A stretch of DNA of 64,000 bases from a virus (taxonomy: Duplodnaviria > Caudoviricetes): the IMG/VR virus record IMGVR_UViG_3300037484_000435, positions 128,001 through 192,000 of that record, one strand, 5' to 3'. Below the pieces are notes generated by a model that ran no database searches, was not told the origin of the DNA, and worked only from the letters and a program-made list of their open reading frames with translations. This document shows positions 1 through 51,707 of this stretch, one piece after another. A program made the position numbers and the translations under genes. Each line of letters begins with the position of its first letter. The stretch's first letter is position 1.

Positions 1-2023
1 GTGTTTTATTACTACGTGGTCCTCCCCTCCGCTTACTGGGGTGTCCTGTATCATGAATTCCTTCTTCGTTAGTATTATTTTTCTTTGTCCCATTACTACT
101 TTTACCCTCTTTGAATATAAATTCTCCATCCTTTACTTTAATCTTAATTAGATCCGGTCTATTTTCTTTATCAACATCATCACTCATAATATATTTATTA
201 CGCAGTATCCACTCAGCTAAAGGTAATTCAAGGCTCTTTTGTACTGCTCTACCTATATTCCTAGCACCATATTCTTCGCTATAACCTTCATCCAAAAGAA
301 AGTCTTTTACAGAATCGTCCCACGCCATAGTCATATGTTGGGCCTTTTCTAAGTTAATTTTGGTTTTTGAAAGCATAACGTCAGTGATATCACGACACAC
401 TGCTTTATCCAAACGGTTAAATTGGATAATGCCTGTCAACCTATTCAGAAACTCTGGGCTAAACAATTCTTTAATAGTAGAACTGATGGCTTCGGCTTCC
501 AATTTAGATTTGTCGTCGCAAAGACCTTCCATCCGAATCCCTATAGGATTTCGGTTACAAATTTCAGCGGCTTCCTTTGTTCCCACATTGGAGGTCATCA
601 AAATAACCGACTCGTTAAAACGAATGGACTCACCTCTACCACTTGTCACTACACCATCATCCATGATCTGGAGCAATACGTTGAATATGGCTTTATCAGC
701 CTTCTCTAGCTCATCAAATAAAACAACACAAAACGGATTAGCTTTTACTTTGGCAGCTAGGGTCATGGGTGGTCCTGAATCCTGCCGAGAATCTTCAAAT
801 CCCACATATCCAGGAGGTGCACCAAAAAGTTTTGATATTTCATGTGCGTGTTGATACTCAGAGCAATCTACTCTAACAAGCTCAACCCCTAATTCATCAG
901 CGAGTACTTTGGCAAATTCAGTTTTGCCTACGCCAGTAGGGCCCGGTAGTAACCAACTACCCACAGGCTTTTCCTCTCCTCTAAGACCAACCCTAGCAAC
1001 TGCGATAGCATCTACTACTGCGTCAATAGCATGGTCCTGTCCTACAATTCTGGTACCTTTTATTCTATCCTTTAACTCTAATATAGTTTGTGCTGATAGT
1101 GTATTAAACCGCTTCTTTTCAGACTCTACTTCATCACGAGAAGACCTACCTAATGGCCTACCTCTGCCTGGCAATTTTTTACCTTTCAAGATTTTAGCCC
1201 CGTAGTCCCCTCGCCTATCTTCAAAAGGAGACCAGTCTATTAATCCCCAATCCAAACTGGGGTTCACATCTACAACAGCCAAATACAATTGTGTCATCAC
1301 AATCGTTTCTGTGTAAATATTTATATAATTACCCTCGGATAACGCCGTAAATAATTCCTGTATTTTGGGGACGGTGGCTGCGATAACATGTGCTTTCCAT
1401 TGTGCAATATTAGCTTTTGCCACCTCCACGTCATTGTCGCATCTACGTTCCACGTAATCCTGCACGACGCGATCTGGTGATACATTTACGGAATCAATTT
1501 GTAGAATCGGCACCTCTAAATTCAACGAGTTTATATGTTTCTTGATATAATCTCGTTCTGGGTACTTCCGTTTTATCTCGTCCCACGCTTGACTAACTAC
1601 TGACTGGGCGGGAGCAGGATTAAAAAGGGCATTAAATTCTACCGATGTTATCCACCCAGGATTAGCGGGTAACGCGATTGTGCCCGGCAAACCATTTCTG
1701 AGTGCGTCAGACTGATCCATTACTTTTTCTCCCACAATAACTAAATACTGCGGGCGTAGTCTATTGTTAAGTTTATAGACTGTATCTATTAGTTGCCCCC
1801 TAAAGATATCGTGATCCCGTTTATTTAATTTTGATTGAACAGCCTTCAATTGGGCGGAGTCTTTTACTAAGGAATGAATCAAAAATTTCTCATACTCTAC
1901 TTGGCTTATAATTCCTCCAGCAACAGATAACTTGGATAAAAATAGGGAGGTGTCATCGCTGGGAATGACACCAACCTCCAAACGTAAACTGTAATCATCG
2001 AAATCAATTGGTTTATACATCAT
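1..2023 (-). CDS. ClpA/ClpB-family AAA+ ATPase (single D2-type module with long unique N-terminal region); 3' end runs off the window
   Basis: Not in ORF track; translated by hand from ATG at 2023, open to window edge: IVGQDHAIDAVVDAI, Walker A LPGPTGVGKTE, VDCSEYQHAHEISKLFGAPPGYVG, Walker B VLFDELEKA, MTSNVG, FSPEFLNRL, YGARNI. Confidence 0.9.
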   Translation of the reverse strand, partial: MMYKPIDFDDYSLRLEVGVIPSDDTSLFLSKLSVAGGIISQVEYEKFLIHSLVKDSAQLKAVQSKLNKRDHDIFRGQLIDTVYKLNNRLRPQYLVIVGEKVMDQSDALRNGLPGTIALPANPGWITSVEFNALFNPAPAQSVVSQAWDEIKRKYPERDYIKKHINSLNLEVPILQIDSVNVSPDRVVQDYVERRCDNDVEVAKANIAQWKAHVIAATVPKIQELFTALSEGNYINIYTETIVMTQLYLAVVDVNPSLDWGLIDWSPFEDRRGDYGAKILKGKKLPGRGRPLGRSSRDEVESEKKRFNTLSAQTILELKDRIKGTRIVGQDHAIDAVVDAIAVARVGLRGEEKPVGSWLLPGPTGVGKTEFAKVLADELGVELVRVDCSEYQHAHEISKLFGAPPGYVGFEDSRQDSGPPMTLAAKVKANPFCVVLFDELEKADKAIFNVLLQIMDDGVVTSGRGESIRFNESVILMTSNVGTKEAAEICNRNPIGIRMEGLCDDKSKLEAEAISSTIKELFSPEFLNRLTGIIQFNRLDKAVCRDITDVMLSKTKINLEKAQHMTMAWDDSVKDFLLDEGYSEEYGARNIGRAVQKSLELPLAEWILRNKYIMSDDVDKENRPDLIKIKVKDGEFIFKEGKSSNGTKKNNTNEEGIHDTGHPSKRRGGPRSNKT

Positions 2024-2033
2024 AATACTCTGT

Positions 2034-3065
2034 TTATTGTACTCCTTGTACAGTATTCCTCATATACTCTAAAACCCGCACAGCTTGGGCAGAAGTAAGC
2101 TCCTCTACAGCCTGTAGCGTTTGTGCTTCCGCACCCAGTACCTGCCTAACTAATAGCATTGGATCGGCGTTCGGCCCAAATGCCATCGTCGCGGCTCCCC
2201 TAATTGCACTTATCTGGTGAGACACAATACCAGCACCGGCTGTACCCTGTTGCATCTGGCCCATAGGTGGTGCCATTGGTTGCTGTGCTGGGTACTGTCC
2301 AGAGGGTGGACCCTGCGGGATACTCTGTATTGGCATTTGTGTTGTCGCTGGCGTACCAGGACCATTTGTATATCCTACATTTGGATTAGTCATCTGCGGC
2401 ACAGGTCCCAATGGCTGCTGCTGTTGCTGCGGCGGTGGACCCTGTGGAGGCATCTGCATACCCATATTAGGATTTGGGTTAGGATTAGCCATCTGTGGGG
2501 GAGGCATCATAGTTGACTGTACTCCCTGCGGGGGCATATTATGTGGACCTGGATTAACCACATTAACATTCATCTGTGGTGGTGGGGGCCCAAACTGACT
2601 CGGCCCTTCCCAAGGTGGTGATTCTCCGTCGTCCAAACCGCTCACATTCTCGCTACTCACTCCCCAGAGATGCAAACCAACACCAAACAGTGATGCTGCT
2701 TTTGTAAGGGCTTTAGAAAAAGCACTTTTCATACTGTCTCCAGGGTCATTGCCTATCGCGTGTCCACCCCAACCATCTCTAATAGCAGTTTTTCCTGTAT
2801 CGGGATCCGGTACTTCGAGACGTACCCTTTTAACGACAAAGTTATTAATTACCATTGACTCAACTTCAGTAACACTCCAAGAACAACCGAAAACCTCATT
2901 AAGTCTATTGATTACTTCTGAAGAAGCAACGAAAGACCATTTCTGTCCAGCCCGTCCCTGACGAGTTTCTATCTTATCTGGTGGAAAAGGTTCATATAGT
3001 CCCTTTATTACCTGTTGCATTTTTGGTGTGAGCGTTGCTTCCGTACTTGTTTTTTTCGTAGCCAT
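2034..3065 (-). CDS. Rad52/Rad22 (Sak-like) ssDNA annealing protein with P/Q/G/M-rich low-complexity tail
   Basis: PFPPDKIETRQG..FVASSEVINRLNEVFG..SW..GDSMKSAFSKALTKAASLFGVGLHLW is the Rad52_Rad22 signature. Confidence 0.85.
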   Translation of the reverse strand: MATKKTSTEATLTPKMQQVIKGLYEPFPPDKIETRQGRAGQKWSFVASSEVINRLNEVFGCSWSVTEVESMVINNFVVKRVRLEVPDPDTGKTAIRDGWGGHAIGNDPGDSMKSAFSKALTKAASLFGVGLHLWGVSSENVSGLDDGESPPWEGPSQFGPPPPQMNVNVVNPGPHNMPPQGVQSTMMPPPQMANPNPNPNMGMQMPPQGPPPQQQQQPLGPVPQMTNPNVGYTNGPGTPATTQMPIQSIPQGPPSGQYPAQQPMAPPMGQMQQGTAGAGIVSHQISAIRGAATMAFGPNADPMLLVRQVLGAEAQTLQAVEELTSAQAVRVLEYMRNTVQGVQ

Positions 3066-3118
3066 GTATTACCTCTCCTTTTGTATACGAGCCTTTTATT
3101 GACCTGCTCAGGTCTTAC

Positions 3119-3178
3119 CTAACACCCGCCTTTGCAGTGGGTTACTGGTCTCAACATATAACGTTTTCTACTAACCAT
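3119..3178 (-). CDS. 19-aa micro-ORF / possible leader peptide (MVSRKRYMLRPVTHCKGGC)
   Basis: GGAGGA SD directly upstream of ATG 3178; TAG at 3119-3121. Confidence 0.35.
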   Translation of the reverse strand: MVSRKRYMLRPVTHCKGGC

Positions 3179-3193
3179 TTTGTAATCCTCCTA

Positions 3194-3604
3194 CTACAAT
3201 TTAAAGCCCTCTTCAGGACTTTTTATCAAAGCAAAGTAGTCATCAATCATTTTATCTACTTTTTTATTACCAAACATTTCTCGAAAGTAATCTTCACCAA
3301 CACGCCACGCAAACCCCTCGTGGGGGTCTTGTGCGTTGGTGGCAAAAAGTACATCCAAAACGCGTTCGCCTTGTTGAACTATGTGCTGGTCAAATACAAA
3401 TGCTGTGCACTCGTTCGCTACACTACATTTAAAGTCTGTGTCCTGCCTGTATTCTGGACAAGTGGGCTGACAGTAGCGACCAACAATTTTAGATACTTTA
3501 GCCACATTTATTTGGATAATTCTCCATTCCCAGTATGGGGCTACAACCACATTATCTGCTTTATAATCTAATGAATCTATGAATCTAGACATTTTCTCTC
3601 TCAA
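3194..3604 (-). CDS. hypothetical protein
   Basis: ORF in minus-strand operon; true start may be MSRFID. Confidence 0.6.
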   Translation of the reverse strand: MREKMSRFIDSLDYKADNVVVAPYWEWRIIQINVAKVSKIVGRYCQPTCPEYRQDTDFKCSVANECTAFVFDQHIVQQGERVLDVLFATNAQDPHEGFAWRVGEDYFREMFGNKKVDKMIDDYFALIKSPEEGFKL

Positions 3605-4229
3605 AAAATTTTATTTCTTCTAGGAGTGTTCTTATACTAGTATCAAATGTAACTAGTTGCGGTTCCTCTACATCATTATAAACGACATAGTCAGGACTAA
3701 AAAGGGCAAGTTCAACTTCGGACCTATGCTTTAGGTTGATAAACGAATCTCCTAGCCTACGCTGACGGATTTCTTCGGGAGCCTCTATACCTATGAGTGT
3801 AAACCCTAATCTCTTCATAAGATTATACTCACCGAGAAACCTGACATCATCAACCATAATCAACACATGTTCTTGTGTCAATTCAGGTAGCTTGTTAGTT
3901 ATTAAACCAATAACATTTTCCTCAAGAACATTCTGGAAGACGTCATCACCAAATTCGCGTCTGGCTAGGTCTCCCAACCGTTGCAAGAAGGTTCGTTCTG
4001 CGGATCCGCCTTTATTTCTATGAAAAGCTATCATGCTGGTATACAAGGGCTGGGCAAACTTCAAGATGTACCCAATTGATGCTTCTCCCCCGTATAGGTC
4101 AGTCATACAACCTAAGGCCAGCATCGCAGCAGCGGTTTTACCTGACCCCATCTTGCCACAAAAAGCAAGTTTATGAACTTTTTTACCATTTATTATTTCC
4201 ATACATCCTCCTTTTACCACCTTCCGCAT
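3585..4229 (-). CDS. deoxynucleoside monophosphate kinase
   Basis: P-loop FCGKMGSGKT, ILKFAQPL, RTFLQRLGDLARREFG, VDDVRFLGE (phage dNMP kinase pattern). Confidence 0.8.
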   Translation of the reverse strand: MRKVVKGGCMEIINGKKVHKLAFCGKMGSGKTAAAMLALGCMTDLYGGEASIGYILKFAQPLYTSMIAFHRNKGGSAERTFLQRLGDLARREFGDDVFQNVLEENVIGLITNKLPELTQEHVLIMVDDVRFLGEYNLMKRLGFTLIGIEAPEEIRQRRLGDSFINLKHRSEVELALFSPDYVVYNDVEEPQLVTFDTSIRTLLEEIKFFERENV

Positions 4230-5095
4230 TTAGGACATTTTACCATCGCCGTGTCCTCCGTAACTCCTGCTTTATACCTGAATGAAAAACTGTCCCGCTC
4301 GAATTCATACCCACATTTATCACAAACAAAACCTCCACTAGTGAGGAAGTTGGTTGCCCGAGTAATTATGTCATACATCTCCCCACAGTCTGCTCTCATT
4401 TTTTCCTGATAGGCACGAAGTGCTAACCACTGATCGATATACTTTTTTAGATTATCCCAATGATCGAACATATACATTCTTTTACCCTTATCTCTCATCT
4501 CTAAATAAGGGAGTTTAGTCCAAGGCCACTTAAGTGTTACAACGTGAATACGAGCATCTATATATTTTTCCCAATAAAGATAATTGTCCTCCACAAACAT
4601 CTCAACTTTATACTCTTTCAGTAAATCCAATTTGTCATTTCTAAATTCGTCTTCGTAAATATCACCTGTACAAAGAACCTCAAATTTAACCTTTGGCCCC
4701 AACGCCTGCTTGATAGAATTGATAGCGGCCTGTTTAAACTGGGCTCGGCGTGATGTAATAAATAATAGCGGCTTCTTGTAGCTCTCATAGAGACCACACA
4801 GAGCTTCTACAGCACCATTTACTGGAGGTAGGGCATGATTATACAGAACAGGCTCATATACCACCCTCAATTTACTAGTAGGGACTCCTACAATTTTACC
4901 TATATCGTAATGAATCCATTTGTCCAACGACCAAGGTAATTCTAAATGAGATGTAATAGCATTCCACATCTCGGTAGCAGTATCGAGAACAATCCCGTCT
5001 ATATCAAAAGCAACTGGTAAATGCTCCCCAGGCTCAAAAATCTTTTCAATGGGCACATCAGTAATCTTTGTGAGTTCAATATTAAAAGTATTCAT
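4214..5095 (-). CDS. HAD-family 5'(3')-deoxyribonucleotidase-like protein with C-terminal Zn ribbon
   Basis: AFDIDGIVLD (DxD), FITSR, K..FVEDN; C-terminal CDKC..CPKC. Confidence 0.75.
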   Translation of the reverse strand: MNTFNIELTKITDVPIEKIFEPGEHLPVAFDIDGIVLDTATEMWNAITSHLELPWSLDKWIHYDIGKIVGVPTSKLRVVYEPVLYNHALPPVNGAVEALCGLYESYKKPLLFITSRRAQFKQAAINSIKQALGPKVKFEVLCTGDIYEDEFRNDKLDLLKEYKVEMFVEDNYLYWEKYIDARIHVVTLKWPWTKLPYLEMRDKGKRMYMFDHWDNLKKYIDQWLALRAYQEKMRADCGEMYDIITRATNFLTSGGFVCDKCGYEFERDSFSFRYKAGVTEDTAMVKCPKCGRW

Positions 5096-6134
5096 TTAAT
5101 CCCTCTGGGGTTCCTATTAGTAGTTTGTCTCCAGTATCAATAATCACCAGATTCGACACGCCATACAAAGCAATAGTTTTACCTGGAGGTTTAAAAATAA
5201 GATTGCTGGTGGACTCAATAGAATGCACACCTGCTTGGCCTTCCGGTTGAAATAATCCAGAATCGTAGAGAAGATGCTTTATGGAAACCCAGTTATCTAA
5301 TGTAGACCAAGCAATTTTTGGGATAAGGGCACCGCGTAACTTTCTATCTGTCAAAATAGAAGGCACTACAAAAGAGAACGGAGTTACTTCTAATTTATTC
5401 CAACCCATAATTTGGGACCCTTTTACTTGTAAAGCCTCTCTCAGATAGTGATCGAACGATCGTAAAGATGCTCCGTAAGTTCCTAAATCCCACATCCAAT
5501 TGTTGGCTACCAATTCTTTGGCAGAATCTAAATCAGGCGTAATCTGATACCCTTCCATCGCAACATTTAATGTACTAATTGTCCCCAAGACAGTGTCCTC
5601 GTAAGGGATTCCCATTGTAGTAACTTGTTGCCAATCACCAAAAAAGTAATTCATTCCGGGGGACGGGCCACCTGGGTTCAAACAAACTGCCACCCATTCA
5701 TCTGGGTGCGTCCTTAACCGCGTTGCAATATTTAAAAAATGAAACATTGCTAATTCAGTTGGCCATAAAAATTGGTCAGATGGTGAAACAATTATTGGTT
5801 CGTCGGAAGGAACTTCTTTTATATCTATTAAATACCTAACAGCTTCCCAAATGGCCCATGCTGAACCTTTTTGTGCTGGTAAGGTTAATACATTTGATAC
5901 AGGAATCCCGTAGAGATTTAATGTGTTTTGTTTAATGAGAGAGTCTATAGATTTGCCCGTAGTCACTATAATAAACCGGTCTCCCTGTCCCTCTACTACC
6001 GCAGATAATCTAGCTAAAGTTTCTTCCAATAGTGATAACTCACTGTATACTGGTAAAAATGCTTTAGGTAGTTCCTCGGAGGTTACGGGCCAAAGTTTCG
6101 GTCCAATTTCATCTGCCAATATAATTACATGCAT
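5082..6134 (-). CDS. mannose-1-phosphate guanylyltransferase (ManC)-like protein with degenerate nucleotide-binding loop
   Basis: ILADEIGPKLWPVT..LPKAFL..SLLEETLARL, PSDQ, WSTLDNW, beta-helix tail IALYGVSNLVIIDTGDKLLI; canonical GGxGTRLWP not conserved. Confidence 0.75.
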   Translation of the reverse strand: MHVIILADEIGPKLWPVTSEELPKAFLPVYSELSLLEETLARLSAVVEGQGDRFIIVTTGKSIDSLIKQNTLNLYGIPVSNVLTLPAQKGSAWAIWEAVRYLIDIKEVPSDEPIIVSPSDQFLWPTELAMFHFLNIATRLRTHPDEWVAVCLNPGGPSPGMNYFFGDWQQVTTMGIPYEDTVLGTISTLNVAMEGYQITPDLDSAKELVANNWMWDLGTYGASLRSFDHYLREALQVKGSQIMGWNKLEVTPFSFVVPSILTDRKLRGALIPKIAWSTLDNWVSIKHLLYDSGLFQPEGQAGVHSIESTSNLIFKPPGKTIALYGVSNLVIIDTGDKLLIGTPEGLNEYF

Positions 6135-6168: not shown

Positions 6169-6828
6169 TCATGTTTGGTGTCTATGATGACCTGAGAGTC
6201 CGTGCTCTTTAATGGCATCGAGATGTTGTTTAGTTGCAAATCCTTTATTTGAGTTCCACCCATATAGGGGAAGCTCCTCATGCAACATATCCATCAGAGC
6301 ATTCCTAGCCGTCTTAGCCACAACAGAAGCCGCAATGCAAGGTTCGAAGAACTCACTAGCACCATCGGCCCGAATTATGGGTATGCCAGAACCGTATAAG
6401 TTTGATGGCAATGTTTCCTGTGTATAACCAAACCCATCAATTATTATGGAAGTGGCTGGGTAATAAATAGAAAAACTAGAAAGGCAAACAGACAGTGCCT
6501 GTAAAATAACCATATCGTGAGTTCTTAAATAATCATCAAATACACCCCAACCTATGGTGAGAAAAGACGACCTCAGTTTTATGTCATCAGAAATCTTGCG
6601 ACATTCTTCTTCACTTAAATCCTTTGCGGGCTGTGTGTACTGAACTTTGGAGTGTGGCTCCACTATGACCGCTGACGCGCAGATGGGCCCAGCAATAGCT
6701 TTACGACCATTAATAGACACACCCACTAATGTTCTGAACCCGACCGTATCATATATCTCGGTCATAGTTAAAAGTTTTTTCTCCCTAAGTTTGTCTAGGA
6801 ACCACGCCATTTCAATAAACCCACTCAT
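6169..6828 (-). CDS. RNase HII-like protein, catalytically degenerate paralog
   Basis: VGVSINGRKAIAGPICASAV (vs GVDEAGRGPLAGPVVAAAV), IIIDG, IAASVVAKTARNALM, YGWNSNKGFATKQH. Confidence 0.8.
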   Translation of the reverse strand: MSGFIEMAWFLDKLREKKLLTMTEIYDTVGFRTLVGVSINGRKAIAGPICASAVIVEPHSKVQYTQPAKDLSEEECRKISDDIKLRSSFLTIGWGVFDDYLRTHDMVILQALSVCLSSFSIYYPATSIIIDGFGYTQETLPSNLYGSGIPIIRADGASEFFEPCIAASVVAKTARNALMDMLHEELPLYGWNSNKGFATKQHLDAIKEHGLSGHHRHQT

Positions 6829-8038
6829 CGCAAAGAAAGGTTTGAAAACTTTCTATAAGCTTTAACTTCTTGCAACTGGGCTCAATTTTTAATGTTTTAC
6901 CGACTATTGAACCTAATTTAAAGCGTCCCGTAATACGCCTACCTAGGATGAAATATATTTTCCCCAAAAACTTTACCTTATCGTAACGTTGGAATCCCTT
7001 AATAAATCTAGACGCTGTATTACGAATGTGGCTTCGAGCACCTTTAAATAATTTTCTATTTTGTTTGCGAACTTGTTTTACTAGGTGTTGAGTCCCACTA
7101 CGAATTTGGTTTATACCACCTACTATAGCAAAAGCATCATTTTGATGTGACTTTACTAAACCTAATTGTTCTCTAGTATTTTTAGTAATATAACCAAAGG
7201 TTTCTTCCACATCACCACACAATTCCTGCAACTTCAAAATTAGACGTTTCTTAACAATTGACATAAAAGTCTCCGCTTTAAATCCTTTGGTAACCTTAAC
7301 TTTAAGTTGAATAGAGCCCGCATGTAGCTTATCATGACAACTCTTACATAACGTGATTAGGTTATCGGGCCTATCAGAACCACCTTGACTGCGTTGTAAG
7401 ATATGATGAACATTAAGCCGCGGTTCTTTAGAACAACCTTTACAATGCTGGCAAATGTGCCCGTCTCGATGGAGCACATAAGCTCTAACATTATCAAACC
7501 CCAACTGATCACCTTTTTGATATTGGTTACCTCTAATGCTAGGGTTCTTAATACGCTGAATGTCAAAGTTAGCTGTCTCAATTACAATCTTTGTAACAGA
7601 TAAAATTGATATTACTTTTTGGATAATCCTAATATGAGAATCCAATTTATGTTGTATTGATGGGGCAAGAGGATTTCGTTTAAACTTCTCTATCCTATTA
7701 AGGAACCTGCATTTACGGTGCCTAGTCTTCCTAGAACGCCGAGTTTTTCGATACATACGACGTTCTGTTAACAATTTAGAAACGTCTTTTCTAAGCAAAA
7801 CTTCTGCTGAAAATAACTCCTGTTTCTCAGTAACCGCTGACAATCCAATATGCTCATAACCTGAGTCTACTCCTAACGTTATATGTTGCCTATAGCCTGA
7901 ACTCCCGTAAAGTAATTGTATTGTGAATGGTGTACGCTTAACAACCTTAGCCTTACCCCTCTTAAGTAAAATTCTGGCTTTAGGTGGTGTAGTAGGCATT
8001 AAAGGTTTTCCCTGTTGATTATGAACATAAACAAACAT
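6812..8038 (-). CDS. iscB: RNA-guided endonuclease IscB (OMEGA system)
   Basis: N-terminal PLMP domain, RuvC-I GVDSG, Arg-rich bridge helix RRMYRKTRR, RuvC-II IETANFD, HNH HHILQRSQGGSDRPDNLITLCKSCH, RuvC-III SHQNDA. Confidence 0.95.
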   Translation of the reverse strand: MFVYVHNQQGKPLMPTTPPKARILLKRGKAKVVKRTPFTIQLLYGSSGYRQHITLGVDSGYEHIGLSAVTEKQELFSAEVLLRKDVSKLLTERRMYRKTRRSRKTRHRKCRFLNRIEKFKRNPLAPSIQHKLDSHIRIIQKVISILSVTKIVIETANFDIQRIKNPSIRGNQYQKGDQLGFDNVRAYVLHRDGHICQHCKGCSKEPRLNVHHILQRSQGGSDRPDNLITLCKSCHDKLHAGSIQLKVKVTKGFKAETFMSIVKKRLILKLQELCGDVEETFGYITKNTREQLGLVKSHQNDAFAIVGGINQIRSGTQHLVKQVRKQNRKLFKGARSHIRNTASRFIKGFQRYDKVKFLGKIYFILGRRITGRFKLGSIVGKTLKIEPSCKKLKLIESFQTFLCDEWVY

Positions 8039-8049
8039 TATTGTAATTA

Positions 8050-8267
8050 CTCCTCGTTACTAATGTAACTTGGGTTAGGGCCTCATCGCTAATGTTATCA
8101 TAGTTTGTTATGTTATGTACACTACCCCTGACCCTCAGGATTGTTTAATATATAACCACAGAGCAGGGAACTTGAGGAGCATTCCAAGGTGTGATGGCCA
8201 TAATAACGTAGCCCTGTATTTCAGGACTAAAGCTAATCAATTTTTTTTTATTACGTGGTCAATTGAT
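8050..8267 (-). ncRNA. omegaRNA scaffold of IscB (guide is the adjacent 5' sequence, approx 8268-8285)
   Basis: Immediately upstream of iscB; 5' stem AATCAATT/AATTGATT, then TTGATTAGC..GGCTACGTT..CACCTTGGAATGC..AGTTCC..CTCTG..AAACA..ATAACATTAGCGA, the usual omegaRNA landmarks; exact ends approximate. Confidence 0.85.
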
Positions 8268-8898
8268 TAAATATTTCCTTCGCCCTGCATAAGTGTGTAT
8301 ATGACAACCAATTCTCTTTTTCTTTATTTGCTCTCATCAAATATGATGGATGATACGTAGTTACTAGACTAGCTCGCCGTCTTATCCCATCAGAACAAGC
8401 ATACTCGAAAAAAGGTAACCGTTCACCCAAAATAGACCCCAACGAATCTGATTTTTTTAATAAACCCAACGAATAAGCAGCAACCTTACCGAATACCAGA
8501 ATCAATTTAGGCTGTATGATTTCGAGTTGGCGGAATAAGAAAGGCTGACACGCATGGACCTCATCGTATGCAGGTGTTATAGCGTTTGATTTCCCCTCGT
8601 GCATAGGTCTTGATTTGATTGCGTTCGTAATGTATAGTTGCTCTCTCACAAATCCAGCACCACTAATCATCCCTTCCCAATATTTGCCCGCCTTTCCAAC
8701 ATATGGGCGTGGCACAGGTTTGGCATAAAACTCCTCTTCTCCCGCCGCCTCCGAGATTGACATCACTAAAGCATCAGCAGGACCCTCACCAAATACTCGA
8801 CAAGGGCCCTGCTGGGATATATAACATCTCTTACAAGACTCAACTTCCTTTTTTAGTCTTTCGAGACCTCTTTGTGCCTCCATCAGCTCGTTTGTCAT
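8251..8898 (-). CDS. udg: uracil-DNA glycosylase, family 4
   Basis: CKRC, VFGEGPADA, SEAAGEEE (GEAPG variant), YITNAIKSRP, IIQPKLILVFG, TYHPSYLMR. Confidence 0.9.
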   Translation of the reverse strand: MTNELMEAQRGLERLKKEVESCKRCYISQQGPCRVFGEGPADALVMSISEAAGEEEFYAKPVPRPYVGKAGKYWEGMISGAGFVREQLYITNAIKSRPMHEGKSNAITPAYDEVHACQPFLFRQLEIIQPKLILVFGKVAAYSLGLLKKSDSLGSILGERLPFFEYACSDGIRRRASLVTTYHPSYLMRANKEKENWLSYTHLCRAKEIFNQLTT

Positions 8899-10772: not shown

Positions 10773-11414
10773 TTAACCTCCGAACTCCTTCCCCAGCTCC
10801 CATATCAGCTTCTGTGTATCTTCAGCCAGCTTATCGTAAGTCTCGTATACCTTTCCGACTTTGGTCCCTAGGTTACTGAGGTCAGCCATAAAGTCATCCC
10901 AAGTTTTATAACGGAACTGGTGTCCTGACACATGGTTTATATCCTTAAATTTCTGTTCAGGAAAACAAGTGTAGGTTACATGCACATTGGTATCATCACC
11001 GAACGTGTTTACTCCTGAAGCACTATTCGTAAATACTATTTCTAATCGGCCCCCGTCGTTCCGCAACTCAATAACAAAACGAAAGTTGTACATGTTAAGA
11101 AAACCACCTGTACTACTAATCCTAGGCCTTCCTAGATTGACATCTGTTACCATGAACAATGCTAGGTTATCAATGCCACTGTGGTGGAGCCCTAAATAAT
11201 TGGGGTGCTCCCTTGTAATGGTTTCATTTATTTTGTCAGCTATATGTTGAGCTAGATTATCTAGCACCTCAACAACCTGCCCCAGAGATAATTTTTGTTC
11301 TTCAGTTTTGCTCATTTTGTTTCCTCTATAACCCTGCCTTTCGCAGGTGGTAATGTAGTGTGGATTCAGGGATTCCCAAAAATCGATGAACCTGTTTCCA
11401 AGTAGATAATTCAC
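10773..11414 (-). CDS. hypothetical protein (likely start MSKTEE)
   Basis: ORF track; annotated N-terminus overlaps upstream HEG. Confidence 0.6.
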   Translation of the reverse strand: MNYLLGNRFIDFWESLNPHYITTCERQGYRGNKMSKTEEQKLSLGQVVEVLDNLAQHIADKINETITREHPNYLGLHHSGIDNLALFMVTDVNLGRPRISSTGGFLNMYNFRFVIELRNDGGRLEIVFTNSASGVNTFGDDTNVHVTYTCFPEQKFKDINHVSGHQFRYKTWDDFMADLSNLGTKVGKVYETYDKLAEDTQKLIWELGKEFGG

Positions 11415-12318
11415 TTTTTAGTTGTAAGAGGAATTCCCTCTCATACCTCAAACTATTCTTTTTAATTTCGTTATCCTGATATGCCTTTTTAATGTTTTCA
11501 AATTCTTTATACTTTCTATCCAAATGTAATGTAGAATTTTTCCACATAATCTCTCCTAGGGCCAACACCGAACCCCAAGAATGCAAGTGGAGAACGTGGG
11601 TTCGAGGAGACTGCTGGTAAGAATAACAAACCACATCTAAAACATTAGTGAGATAGTCTTTTAATTGCTGAATAAAAATTGGGTTACTGGCAAAATGCAA
11701 CACTGGTAATCCCGTTTTGTCCCTCCCTATATGTCCGTCACCGTCAAAATAACCTCTGATAAAATGTGGAAGCAATTCTTTTGGCAAAAAATAAGGAAAA
11801 GTAATTTTCAAGGCTTTAGGAGACAAACACCCTAGACCTTCTAGTTTTTCTATGATGTTCTTGCTAGAAATAACTAACGTAACTTGGTACGACAGAAAAC
11901 CCTTTTTTGTTACCTTAGTATCGTAGTATAACGGCCTTGGGCACGACAGGCACTCTTGGATTTCATGTAGCAACGCTTCGTCCTTTGCTCCCAAGGCAAT
12001 GCGTAACATGTACCTTTGTTTAGATTCATTTTTCGAAACATAGCCGTCAGCATAAATAAAACCTAATATATAGGCTTTTTTCTCGTGGTCTATCTCATCA
12101 AAAAAAGATTCATCAAGTGGGTACTTACGGCACTCTTTACTTCCTGCCCTCCGCGGTATTCCCAATTCCACCAAGGTATCCCACACGAATTTTTCAGACA
12201 ATTTGTGTGTCTCTGCAAGCATTTTGATTGTTGAGCCAGATATGTATTCTGTTGCTAATACTGGCTTTATGCCCTCATAAAATTTTCTAGAGTGTAATGT
12301 TCTCATTGCGTCCTCCAA
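11326..12318 (-). CDS. free-standing LAGLIDADG homing endonuclease (likely start ATG 12306)
   Basis: KAYILGFIYADG and HFIRGYFDGDG motifs; terminal HTH-like segments. Confidence 0.9.
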   Translation of the reverse strand: MEDAMRTLHSRKFYEGIKPVLATEYISGSTIKMLAETHKLSEKFVWDTLVELGIPRRAGSKECRKYPLDESFFDEIDHEKKAYILGFIYADGYVSKNESKQRYMLRIALGAKDEALLHEIQECLSCPRPLYYDTKVTKKGFLSYQVTLVISSKNIIEKLEGLGCLSPKALKITFPYFLPKELLPHFIRGYFDGDGHIGRDKTGLPVLHFASNPIFIQQLKDYLTNVLDVVCYSYQQSPRTHVLHLHSWGSVLALGEIMWKNSTLHLDRKYKEFENIKKAYQDNEIKKNSLRYEREFLLQLKSELSTWKQVHRFLGIPESTLHYHLRKAGL

Positions 12319-12357: not shown

Positions 12358-13194
12358 TCACACATCCATTTCTTCTTTCAAGTCAAAATAAAATGAGGGT
12401 GAGAGGGGCTCTACCAAATCCCAAATCATCCAAATCAATCTACGGAGTTCACTCTCAGTATCCGCCCGCAAACGCTCATCAAAAATGTGGCGGAGTGAAC
12501 GGACATTAACCCACATGGTTCTTTCGGTGGAAGAGAATACAGGGATAACCCCCCGTGCTTGTTCTTTTGTCATCGGAACATACTCAGACTTAGTTTTATC
12601 CCACTCCTCTGGAGTACACCCTGTTCCCTTTACGGAGGGCTGGGGAGAACGAAGATATTCGTAGAAATTTTGGCAACTCCTAAAATGCTTGCTCCAGCTC
12701 TGGTATCTCTCCCTAGCAAAATCCTCGTAATCAATATTATCAAGTATAGGGTATACGTAAGCAGGCCCAGCTGTTACAAAACGGCGACTACGACTGATAT
12801 GACCAGAATGCCTGTATCTACTTAACTGAGCTCCCGCTGCCTTGCTTAACCCTTTTATATTTATTGCATACTGAACTATTTCAAATGGCGTAAAATGCTT
12901 CTGACTAATAAGTTTCTTATTTAACTTTATAGCTCGCTCACTATCATTCTCTAGTTTTTCTGTAGCACCGTAGCTTACTCCAGCGGATATTGCTGGTAGT
13001 TGTTCTATTTCTTCCCATCCTATAAACCCATCTTTATCCACGGATTCACACCGATTAATATAACCAAACCCCGGCATAATTATTTTATTCACTGGCATGG
13101 TAATAGCCCGTAGCTCCACTGAAGGCTCCGAATTTCCAAAGAGACCCTTTCGAAGAGGTTTCCACTTGTCTTTTACACGCTCAAACTTTGGCAT
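12358..13194 (-). CDS. thyX: FAD-dependent thymidylate synthase ThyX (divergent)
   Basis: KHFTPFE, QLSRYRHSGHISRSRRF (RHRx7S variant), EQARGVIP, NVRSLRHIFDERL, ESELR. Confidence 0.8.
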   Translation of the reverse strand: MPKFERVKDKWKPLRKGLFGNSEPSVELRAITMPVNKIIMPGFGYINRCESVDKDGFIGWEEIEQLPAISAGVSYGATEKLENDSERAIKLNKKLISQKHFTPFEIVQYAINIKGLSKAAGAQLSRYRHSGHISRSRRFVTAGPAYVYPILDNIDYEDFARERYQSWSKHFRSCQNFYEYLRSPQPSVKGTGCTPEEWDKTKSEYVPMTKEQARGVIPVFSSTERTMWVNVRSLRHIFDERLRADTESELRRLIWMIWDLVEPLSPSFYFDLKEEMDV

Positions 13195-50775: not shown

Positions 50776-51078
50776 TTAATCTCCTAAAAAATTCTCTAAA
50801 CAAAATTGTTGAATTAGTTCAACTAAAACATCCCCATGGCATAACTTCGGCTTGCAGCTACAAACAAGGACCTTTCCCTGCAGACTGCAGAGGCTATTCA
50901 TAATTTGTGGGTTAGACAGTGCATAAGGCAGGTACAACTTAACCGCTTCCTCTCTAGTGTCCACATTGACCCCTACAATATAGGGATTCCCAAAGACAGT
51001 GCCACGCCCAATATATATGTATTTGGGGTCTGCAAGGTCATAGGGCTCTTTATGTCTATTCACAACTATCGTTTTCAT
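50776..51078 (-). CDS. DUF4326 family protein
   Basis: IYIGRGTVFGNPY..LQGKVLVCSCKPKLCHGDVL. Confidence 0.85.
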   Translation of the reverse strand: MKTIVVNRHKEPYDLADPKYIYIGRGTVFGNPYIVGVNVDTREEAVKLYLPYALSNPQIMNSLCSLQGKVLVCSCKPKLCHGDVLVELIQQFCLENFLGD

Positions 51079-51707
51079 AAGACAAATTCTTTCACACCCC
51101 TAAAACCTACCCTATGTAGAGGGGTAATGCCATGTTCTCTTATCATTTCCTTGTGGAATTTTGTTGGGTAACCCTTGTTCTGTTGCCACCCGTATTCGGG
51201 GAACTGCTCCGACAAAGTATCCATAAGCCTGTCTCTAGTAACTTTGGCCAGAACGCTGGCCGCAGCAATAGATAGAGATTTTTGGTCACCCTTAACAATT
51301 GATTCTTGTGGTATTGCGGTTTGAAGAGGTTTATTCCCATCAATTAAAATGTAATTGGGTTGCGGATTTAATTGGGAAATTGATTCTAACATGGCCAGTC
51401 GGCCCGCCCAATAGATATTTATGTTATTTATGGTCTCTACCGAAACTATACTGATACCATAACTAAGGGCTTTCTCAATTATAATGGGATAGAGGTCTTC
51501 CCTCTGCTCGGGTGATAGTAATTTAGAATCAGTCAATCCTTTAATGAAAGTTACACCCTCATCAAATATAACCGCCGCAGCCGTACAAGGGCCCGCGAGG
51601 GGACCTAGACCTGCCTCATCGGTCCCCGCGATTAATCCATATCCTGCTTGTCGTAAAATTTTTTCTCGAAAAAACGTAGGTTTAGCCTTCTCCGACTGCC
51701 TCGTCAT
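51075..51707 (-). CDS. rnhB: ribonuclease HII (catalytic residues intact)
   Basis: AGTDEAGLGPLAGP, LTDSKLL, LIDGN, KGD..SIAAASVLAKVTRD, NKGYPT. Confidence 0.95.
   Translation of the reverse strand: MTRQSEKAKPTFFREKILRQAGYGLIAGTDEAGLGPLAGPCTAAAVIFDEGVTFIKGLTDSKLLSPEQREDLYPIIIEKALSYGISIVSVETINNINIYWAGRLAMLESISQLNPQPNYILIDGNKPLQTAIPQESIVKGDQKSLSIAAASVLAKVTRDRLMDTLSEQFPEYGWQQNKGYPTKFHKEMIREHGITPLHRVGFRGVKEFVL

Follow-up and report, generated by a model that had tools for sequence, protein, structure and literature searches.

A huge-phage family of RNase HII-fold proteins without two metal-binding carboxylates is linked to a family-4 uracil-DNA glycosylase-like gene

An RNase HII-like gene and its neighbours

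The 64,000 bp stretch analysed here, referred to as the window, comprises bases 128,001–192,000 of a 545,322 bp virus record. Its G+C content is approximately 40%, and long ORFs were found on the minus strand in every stretch that was examined. All of the features for which coordinates are given below are on the minus strand. The original prediction had placed an RNase HII-like ORF at 6169–6828. The ORF is real but probably begins six codons downstream of 6828, as all of the orthologs begin with MAWFLD. The ATG at 6810, which lies one base past the TGA stop codon of an upstream IscB ORF, is thus most likely the true start. The CDS at 6169–6810 encodes a 213 aa protein, here called the variant protein, which was identified as a predicted nuclease-dead RNase HII-fold protein from its match to the Pfam RNase_HII model (PF01351; 39.8 bits against a cut-off of 25.8), the starts of its orthologs, an AlphaFold2 model and Foldseek matches. 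It scores below the cut-offs of all of the NCBIfam RNase HII equivalogs, the best being NF000595 (93.2 bits against 167). Only two RNase HII matches were found in the phage genome, the variant gene and an intact rnhB, and the two proteins are 31% identical.

The intact rnhB is at 51075–51707, as the original prediction stated. Its product matches the Pfam model with 127.8 bits and passes the NCBIfam equivalog cut-off (NF000594; 252.8 bits against 243), and it has all of the DE, DSK, IDG, KGD and KGY motifs.

The neighbours of the variant gene are genes for DNA and nucleotide metabolism. An array at 2–4229 includes an ORF for a ClpB-like AAA+ protein, which is clipped by the window end, and genes for a Rad52/Erf-like single-strand annealing protein (2034–3065) and a dNMP kinase (3585–4229). 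A gene for a HAD-like protein is listed between the dNMP kinase gene and one for a ManC-like nucleotidyltransferase (5082–6134), which is directly downstream of the variant gene. The ManC-like protein has weak family scores (Pfam NTP_transferase, 23.8 bits; TIGR01479, 50 bits against a cut-off of 373) and may be one more degenerate enzyme. On the other side of the variant gene is a family-4 uracil-DNA glycosylase (UDG)-like gene (8251–8898; Pfam UDG, 77.6 bits; TIGR00758, 114.6 bits, which is below the 125.3 cut-off), followed in the neighbourhood listing by a metallopeptidase gene. Further along are thyX (Thy1; 12358–13194) and, immediately downstream of it, a LAGLIDADG homing endonuclease ORF (11326–12318). 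Together with IscB, this makes two mobile endonucleases in the nucleotide-metabolism region.

In the window, a complete IscB ORF with its HEARO/omega RNA (cassette at 6812–8267; Pfam RRXRR, 203 bits, plus HNH; Rfam) sits exactly between the stop codon of the UDG-like gene and the start of the variant gene. The HEARO (IscB omega) RNA (RF02033; 8074–8267) is full length with an Rfam score of 118 bits, and it starts within the final codons of the UDG-like gene. At the opposite end of the cassette, the IscB ORF ends one base ahead of the variant gene start. Thus, the two genes are parted here by a mobile cassette. A scan for promoters and terminators returned no signal above shuffled background that was relevant to the variant gene.

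Active site residues of the variant protein

In RNase H2 of T. maritima, D18 and E19 lie at the end of strand 1 and hold metals A and B, with D18 being the carboxylate that contacts both metals, and D124 is auxiliary (PMC3025331). The 2′-OH at the RNA-DNA junction is sensed by G21-R22-G23 together with Y163, phosphate contacts are made by K47 of the DSK motif (scissile phosphate) and by K122 and K138 (backbone), and R141 and R182 support the GRG loop (PMC3025331). Mutation of the equivalents of D18, E19 or D107 kills activity in the characterised enzymes, and substitutions at the D18 or E19 equivalent abolished activity in every RNase H2 tested (PMC3025331).

The strand 1 motif of the variant protein reads L-V-G-V-S-I-N-G-R-K-A-I-A, compared with the canonical G-x-D-E-x-G-R-G. 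The original prediction that the D-E of GVDEAG has been replaced by S-I was borne out by the translation and by the family alignment, with the codons for S38-I39, in place of the metal ligands D18-E19, at 6712–6717. G23 is replaced by K43, and the GRG loop reads G-R-K. The Asp and Ser of the DSK motif (D45-S46) are also lost, leaving P-A-K, and Y163 is replaced by F197 within an N-K-G-F sequence (6238–6249) that puts a Phe at the junction-sensing position. The residues that have been kept are D131 (for D107; 6436–6438), R42 (R22), K69 (K47), K172 (K138), R175 (R141) and R216 (R182). The C-terminal part was also said to be kept, and the sequence NKGFATKQH is indeed present.

The claimed loss of carboxylates therefore holds for the first two, the equivalents of D18 and E19. 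The third, D131, has been kept, and the outcome for the fourth depends on the alignment. The loop before helix E contains a 3-residue insertion in the variant protein, and as a result the pairing of D124 is ambiguous: it is D155 by BLAST and S158 by HMMER and MAFFT, and neither position is consistently acidic in the family. This loop and the helix E N-cap, D155-G-A-S-E-F-F-E162, were located at 6343–6366 using the alignment and the structural model.

Predicted structure

An AlphaFold2 model of the variant protein made with the family alignment has a mean pLDDT of 95.4 and a pTM of 0.92, and its helix E spans residues 162–185, with position 162 as the first residue. The top Foldseek matches were RNase HII structures. 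For E. coli RNase HII (7uwe_C), the E-value was 9e-16 with TM scores of 0.73/0.84 and an rmsd of 2.2 Å, and for T. maritima RNase H2 with substrate (3o3g and 3o3f) the TM scores were 0.71/0.70. The RNase HII fold of the variant protein is thus predicted to be intact, as the original prediction had supposed.

A family defined by the loss of both strand 1 carboxylates

A word-indexed search found nine orthologs that are 67–87% identical to the variant protein and one that is 38% identical. When a profile HMM was used to search 1.84 billion representatives, a discrete group of 11 clusters with scores of at least 144 bits was returned, and canonical RNase HII scored at most 115 bits. A further divergent member of the family, P0155 (110 bits), was found among the canonical matches. 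In total, 23 family members, with identities down to approximately 26%, were analysed in an alignment of 74 sequences (A4) that includes 51 canonical RNase HII. The 23 sequences form a single clade on a long branch in a maximum-likelihood tree (SH-aLRT 100), and the diversity within this clade is about that seen among RNase HII from different bacterial groups. We conclude that the huge-phage RNase HII-fold proteins that lack both carboxylates are a monophyletic family and not a one-off.

The same tree puts the variant gene and the intact rnhB in separate lineages, which rules out a recent duplication of the intact rnhB as the origin of the variant gene. The original prediction had called the variant gene a paralog, and it is not a recent one from within this genome.

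HMM searching with no restriction on length gave no fusion proteins in the family. The only RNase HII loci obtained from scans of viral, metagenome and genome contigs were canonical, with 156/156 motif matches reading D-E, and only generic RNase HII clusters were found in a protein atlas. Phage records yielded no nucleotide match. A 31% protein match in the 636 kb phage LR756504.1 was discarded, as it is a canonical RNase HII that reads GTDESG.

The D18 column of the alignment is S, H, A or G in all of the 23 family members and D in 51/51 canonical sequences. At the E19 column, the family has I, L, V, A or S (23/23), and E is present in 51/51 canonical sequences. Most family members have also lost the Asp and Ser of DSK, the second glycine of GRG and the acid in the D124 column, all of which are conserved in canonical RNase HII, as is an Arg at position 76 that has been lost from the family. 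Other positions have been retained. D131 is D or E in 23/23 family members and conserved in canonical RNase HII, and K172, likewise conserved in the canonical sequences, is K or R in 96% of the family. R175, H202, H215 and R216 are invariant in both groups, and the C-terminal domain has been conserved throughout the family. The junction aromatic in the Y163 column, which is Y in canonical RNase HII, is F or Y in 87% of the family. The R22, K47 and K122 equivalents are only partly kept when the whole family is considered.

As the strand 1 Asp and Glu, which would hold metals A and B, have been swapped for small or hydrophobic residues, we infer that two-metal-ion hydrolysis would no longer be possible for these proteins. 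In the source databases, the genes are annotated plainly as 'ribonuclease HII' (JGI names), and with respect to activity this annotation is probably wrong.

The family has also gained conserved features. Trp94 and an N-terminal helix that contains an invariant Trp9 are among these, as are an insertion running from F133 to P150, after strand 4, and a D or E at position 162 in 23/23 members; the subgroup to which the window protein belongs keeps D155 and E159 as well. These acids raise the question of whether the protein is still a nuclease, or some other hydrolase, with a site rebuilt around D131 and E162, together with D155 and E159 in the window subgroup. D131 and E162 are acidic in every member, and E162 opens helix E in the model, the equivalent of the helix in which RNase H1, Tn5 transposase and Argonaute place their fourth carboxylate (PMC3025331). 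The invariant acids could allow residual metal binding or altered chemistry. However, the D18 equivalent is never acidic in the family and no substitute acid is conserved on strand 1, where, as noted above, substitutions have abolished activity in every RNase H2 tested (PMC3025331). The family-specific positions are mostly aromatic or hydrophobic, do not include a new conserved constellation of His, Ser, Lys or Cys, and look like packing residues rather than a new catalytic set. We therefore regard a rebuilt active site as improbable.

All but two of the family members are full length, and the two exceptions are on contigs of <600 bp. Catalytic residue loss would by itself fit a functionless gene copy that is in the process of decaying. 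However, full-length orthologs with intact frames occur in more than 20 clusters and extend from 87% to approximately 26% identity with many positions invariant, synteny is conserved, and the rate of divergence matches that of the neighbouring UDG. Neutral decay is thus excluded at the protein level, leaving this explanation with next to no probability, and the original proposal that a pseudo-nuclease has been retained is upheld. On this protein-level argument, the family is kept by purifying selection.

Linkage to a UDG-like gene

The strongest functional clue, which was missed by the original prediction, is a conserved linkage between the variant gene and the family-4 UDG-like gene. For 14 family members, the contig is equal in bp to one that carries a UDG ortholog, and the linkage is read from this equality, the order of the genes having been seen in the window alone, where they are not adjacent. 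The shared contigs are 1456, 3889, 5983, 7681, 7934, 11,730 and 14,321 bp, with the larger ones 29,689, 78,686, 129,661, 210,555, 320,389, 360,924 and 647,399 bp. In the smallest, a 230 aa family member and a 211 aa UDG account for 1329 of the 1456 bp, and the two genes must therefore be adjacent there. The UDG matches span the whole of the family tree, including the earliest branch (P0140 with P0312), and the members for which no UDG match was found are mostly on contigs of <2.5 kb.

Where both genes are carried, the two proteins have diverged from those of the window at about the same rate. The identities for the variant protein and the UDG, respectively, are 87% and 75% in the 11,730 bp contig, 77% and 73% (7681 bp), 76% and 77% (129,661 bp), 73% and 75% (647,399/658,305 bp), 72% and 72% (7934 bp), 69% and 77% (29,689 bp), 69% and 72% (5983 bp), 67% and 71% (3889 bp), and 38% and 43% (78,686 bp).

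Ordinary phage RNase HII genes were considered as a further setting for an adjoining UDG, and this was dismissed when none of 161 fetched loci had a UDG-like gene within 8–10 kb of the canonical RNase HII.

The CxxC and HPSYL motifs of the putative UDG are invariant among its orthologs. Motif A is S-E-A-A-G in the window and S-E-A-P-G in remoter orthologs, compared with the G-E-A-P-G type. The window UDG-like protein also resembles models for the UdgX family.

A possible accessory of the UDG-like enzyme

Our best reading, to which we assign a probability of about 45%, is that the variant protein is a pseudo-nuclease that is held by selection and acts as a non-cutting accessory of the UDG-like enzyme. 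From the retained residues and the gene linkage we infer that it is a candidate DNA-binding protein and a physical or functional partner of the UDG. It would work with the neighbouring glycosylase and would hold duplex DNA, without nicking it, in the helix E groove that has been retained between its catalytic domain and its C-terminal domain. Alternatively, the groove may take up an irregularity in the sugar or backbone, for example an embedded ribonucleotide or an abasic site, again without a nick. The protein could instead tether or regulate the UDG.

The original prediction proposed a protein that binds RNA/DNA hybrids or embedded ribonucleotides. As a rival to our reading, such a protein would stand alone, bind without cleaving and independently of the UDG, and keep the RNase H of the host or phage away from R-loops, primers or rNMP sites. 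Nearly all of the basic residues that contact the substrate (R42, K69, K172, R175, K195 and R216) have been kept in the window subgroup, and the Phe in place of Y163 is a conservative change. An intact RNase HII is also present alongside the variant protein, both in the window phage and in a distant relative: the 210,555 bp contig encodes an intact RNase HII, P0031, in addition to a variant copy, and the coexistence of the dead and live forms thus recurs. However, the family as a whole shows degradation of the elements with which the 2′-OH is read (the second glycine of GRG, the DSK motif and the hydroxyl of Tyr), and the tight family-wide linkage to the UDG would be left unexplained. The overall charge is also below that of canonical RNase HII. 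The median pI is 6.76 for the family and 9.1 for canonical RNase HII, with net charges of −1 and +5, respectively, and this low pI weakens a generic nucleic-acid-binding reading. We consider a stand-alone hybrid binder unlikely.

Low charge, together with the partial retention of the R22, K47 and K122 equivalents, makes a mainly protein-binding role possible, and with the conserved Arg at position 76 lost as well, some family members may bind DNA weakly or not at all. One such role would be that of a mimic or decoy, which either takes the docking site of the host RNase HII on a partner such as RNA polymerase, in transcription-coupled ribonucleotide excision repair, or distracts a host defence protein, the latter a role that the original prediction had also raised. 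The closest structure, 7uwe_C, is of E. coli RNase HII bound to RNA polymerase; reduced positive charge suits protein binding, and the family-specific N-terminal helix with Trp9 and the insertion after D131 are candidate surface elements. Against this, a PADLOC search returned no defence-related match and did not place the variant protein in any defence system, and a mimic would not be predicted to be linked to a UDG. We consider this role, too, rather unlikely, and both the shielding of R-loops and a decoy function are speculative.

Taken further, the accessory reading suggests a two-gene DNA-surveillance module of huge phages, not previously described, that consists of the family-4 UDG-like enzyme and an RNase HII-fold reader that does not cut. 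A site in the replicating phage DNA, either abasic or a ribonucleotide such as rU, would be recognised and left uncut. It would then be handed over, or the glycosylase would be restrained or targeted, and the DNA would be guarded from nicking. This more specific proposal is tentative and may well be incorrect. If it is true, the module would include the first pseudoenzyme of the RNase HII/H2 branch with a defined partner. More generally, the presence of the variant protein and a UDG in phages of several hundred kb points to an accessory step in the handling of uracil, abasic sites or ribonucleotides by very large phage genomes, and the protein may offer a natural substrate-trap scaffold for lesion-binding tools.

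Comparison with known proteins

To our knowledge, RNase HII is among the most conserved repair enzymes across all life. RNase HII itself is already known, and what is new here is a pseudoenzyme branch of it that has a conserved gene partner. Compared with bacterial RNase HII (PF01351; T. maritima 3O3F/3O3G and E. coli 7UWE), the variant protein is similar in length and has the same two-domain fold (TM 0.7–0.84; rmsd 2.2–2.9 Å over approximately 190 residues). It keeps the D107 equivalent, K138 and R141 of helix E, R182 and the C-terminal domain with its PxYGW…N-K-G-aromatic-x-T-x-x-H…G…HR pattern. Unlike the bacterial enzymes, it has S-I for D18/E19, K for the second glycine of GRG, neither the Asp nor the Ser of DSK, and F in place of Y163, which removes the hydroxyl. 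It also differs from them in the 3-residue insertion and new conserved Glu at helix E, the insertion after strand 4, the extra N-terminal helix and a lower pI, as well as in falling below the NCBIfam equivalog cut-offs, belonging to a separate clade and being linked to a UDG.

Nuclease-dead binders with RNase H-like folds include the inactive PIWI domains of short prokaryotic Argonautes, the RNase H-like domain of Prp8 and the connection domain of retroviral reverse transcriptase. In each, selection has kept the RNase H-superfamily fold after the metal-binding carboxylates were lost, and the protein has a binding or scaffold role beside an active partner, but they stem from other branches of the superfamily. 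We know of none that has the RNase HII/H2-type fold or that is paired with a uracil-DNA glycosylase.

The B and C accessory subunits of eukaryotic RNase H2 are a further point of comparison. They are non-catalytic proteins that support a type 2 RNase H and connect the enzyme with other factors of replication or repair (PMC13492167). The variant protein resembles them as a putative non-catalytic accessory. However, the B and C subunits have a triple-barrel fold and partner the catalytic A subunit, whereas here the RNase HII fold belongs to the putative non-catalytic protein, next to which a UDG, and not an active RNase HII, is conserved. Neither an inactive branch of RNase HII nor a gene pair of RNase HII and UDG was described in the publications found by literature searches. 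A 2026 review of RNase HII gave no matches for inactive or pseudo forms, and its mentions of paralogs concern other proteins (PMC13492167).

Relatives of the intact RNase HII

In the tree, the intact RNase HII of the window groups among its phage orthologs and enzymes from Nitrospinota, the latter being 54–56% identical and its closest cellular relatives. This kinship may be a clue to the identity of the host or of the gene donor. A related phage contig of 83,184 bp, from a metagenome, encodes an intact RNase HII and a UDG (P0021 and P0308) whose identities to the intact RNase HII and the UDG of the window are 82% and 46%, respectively. The difference between these values suggests mosaic gene exchange among huge phages.
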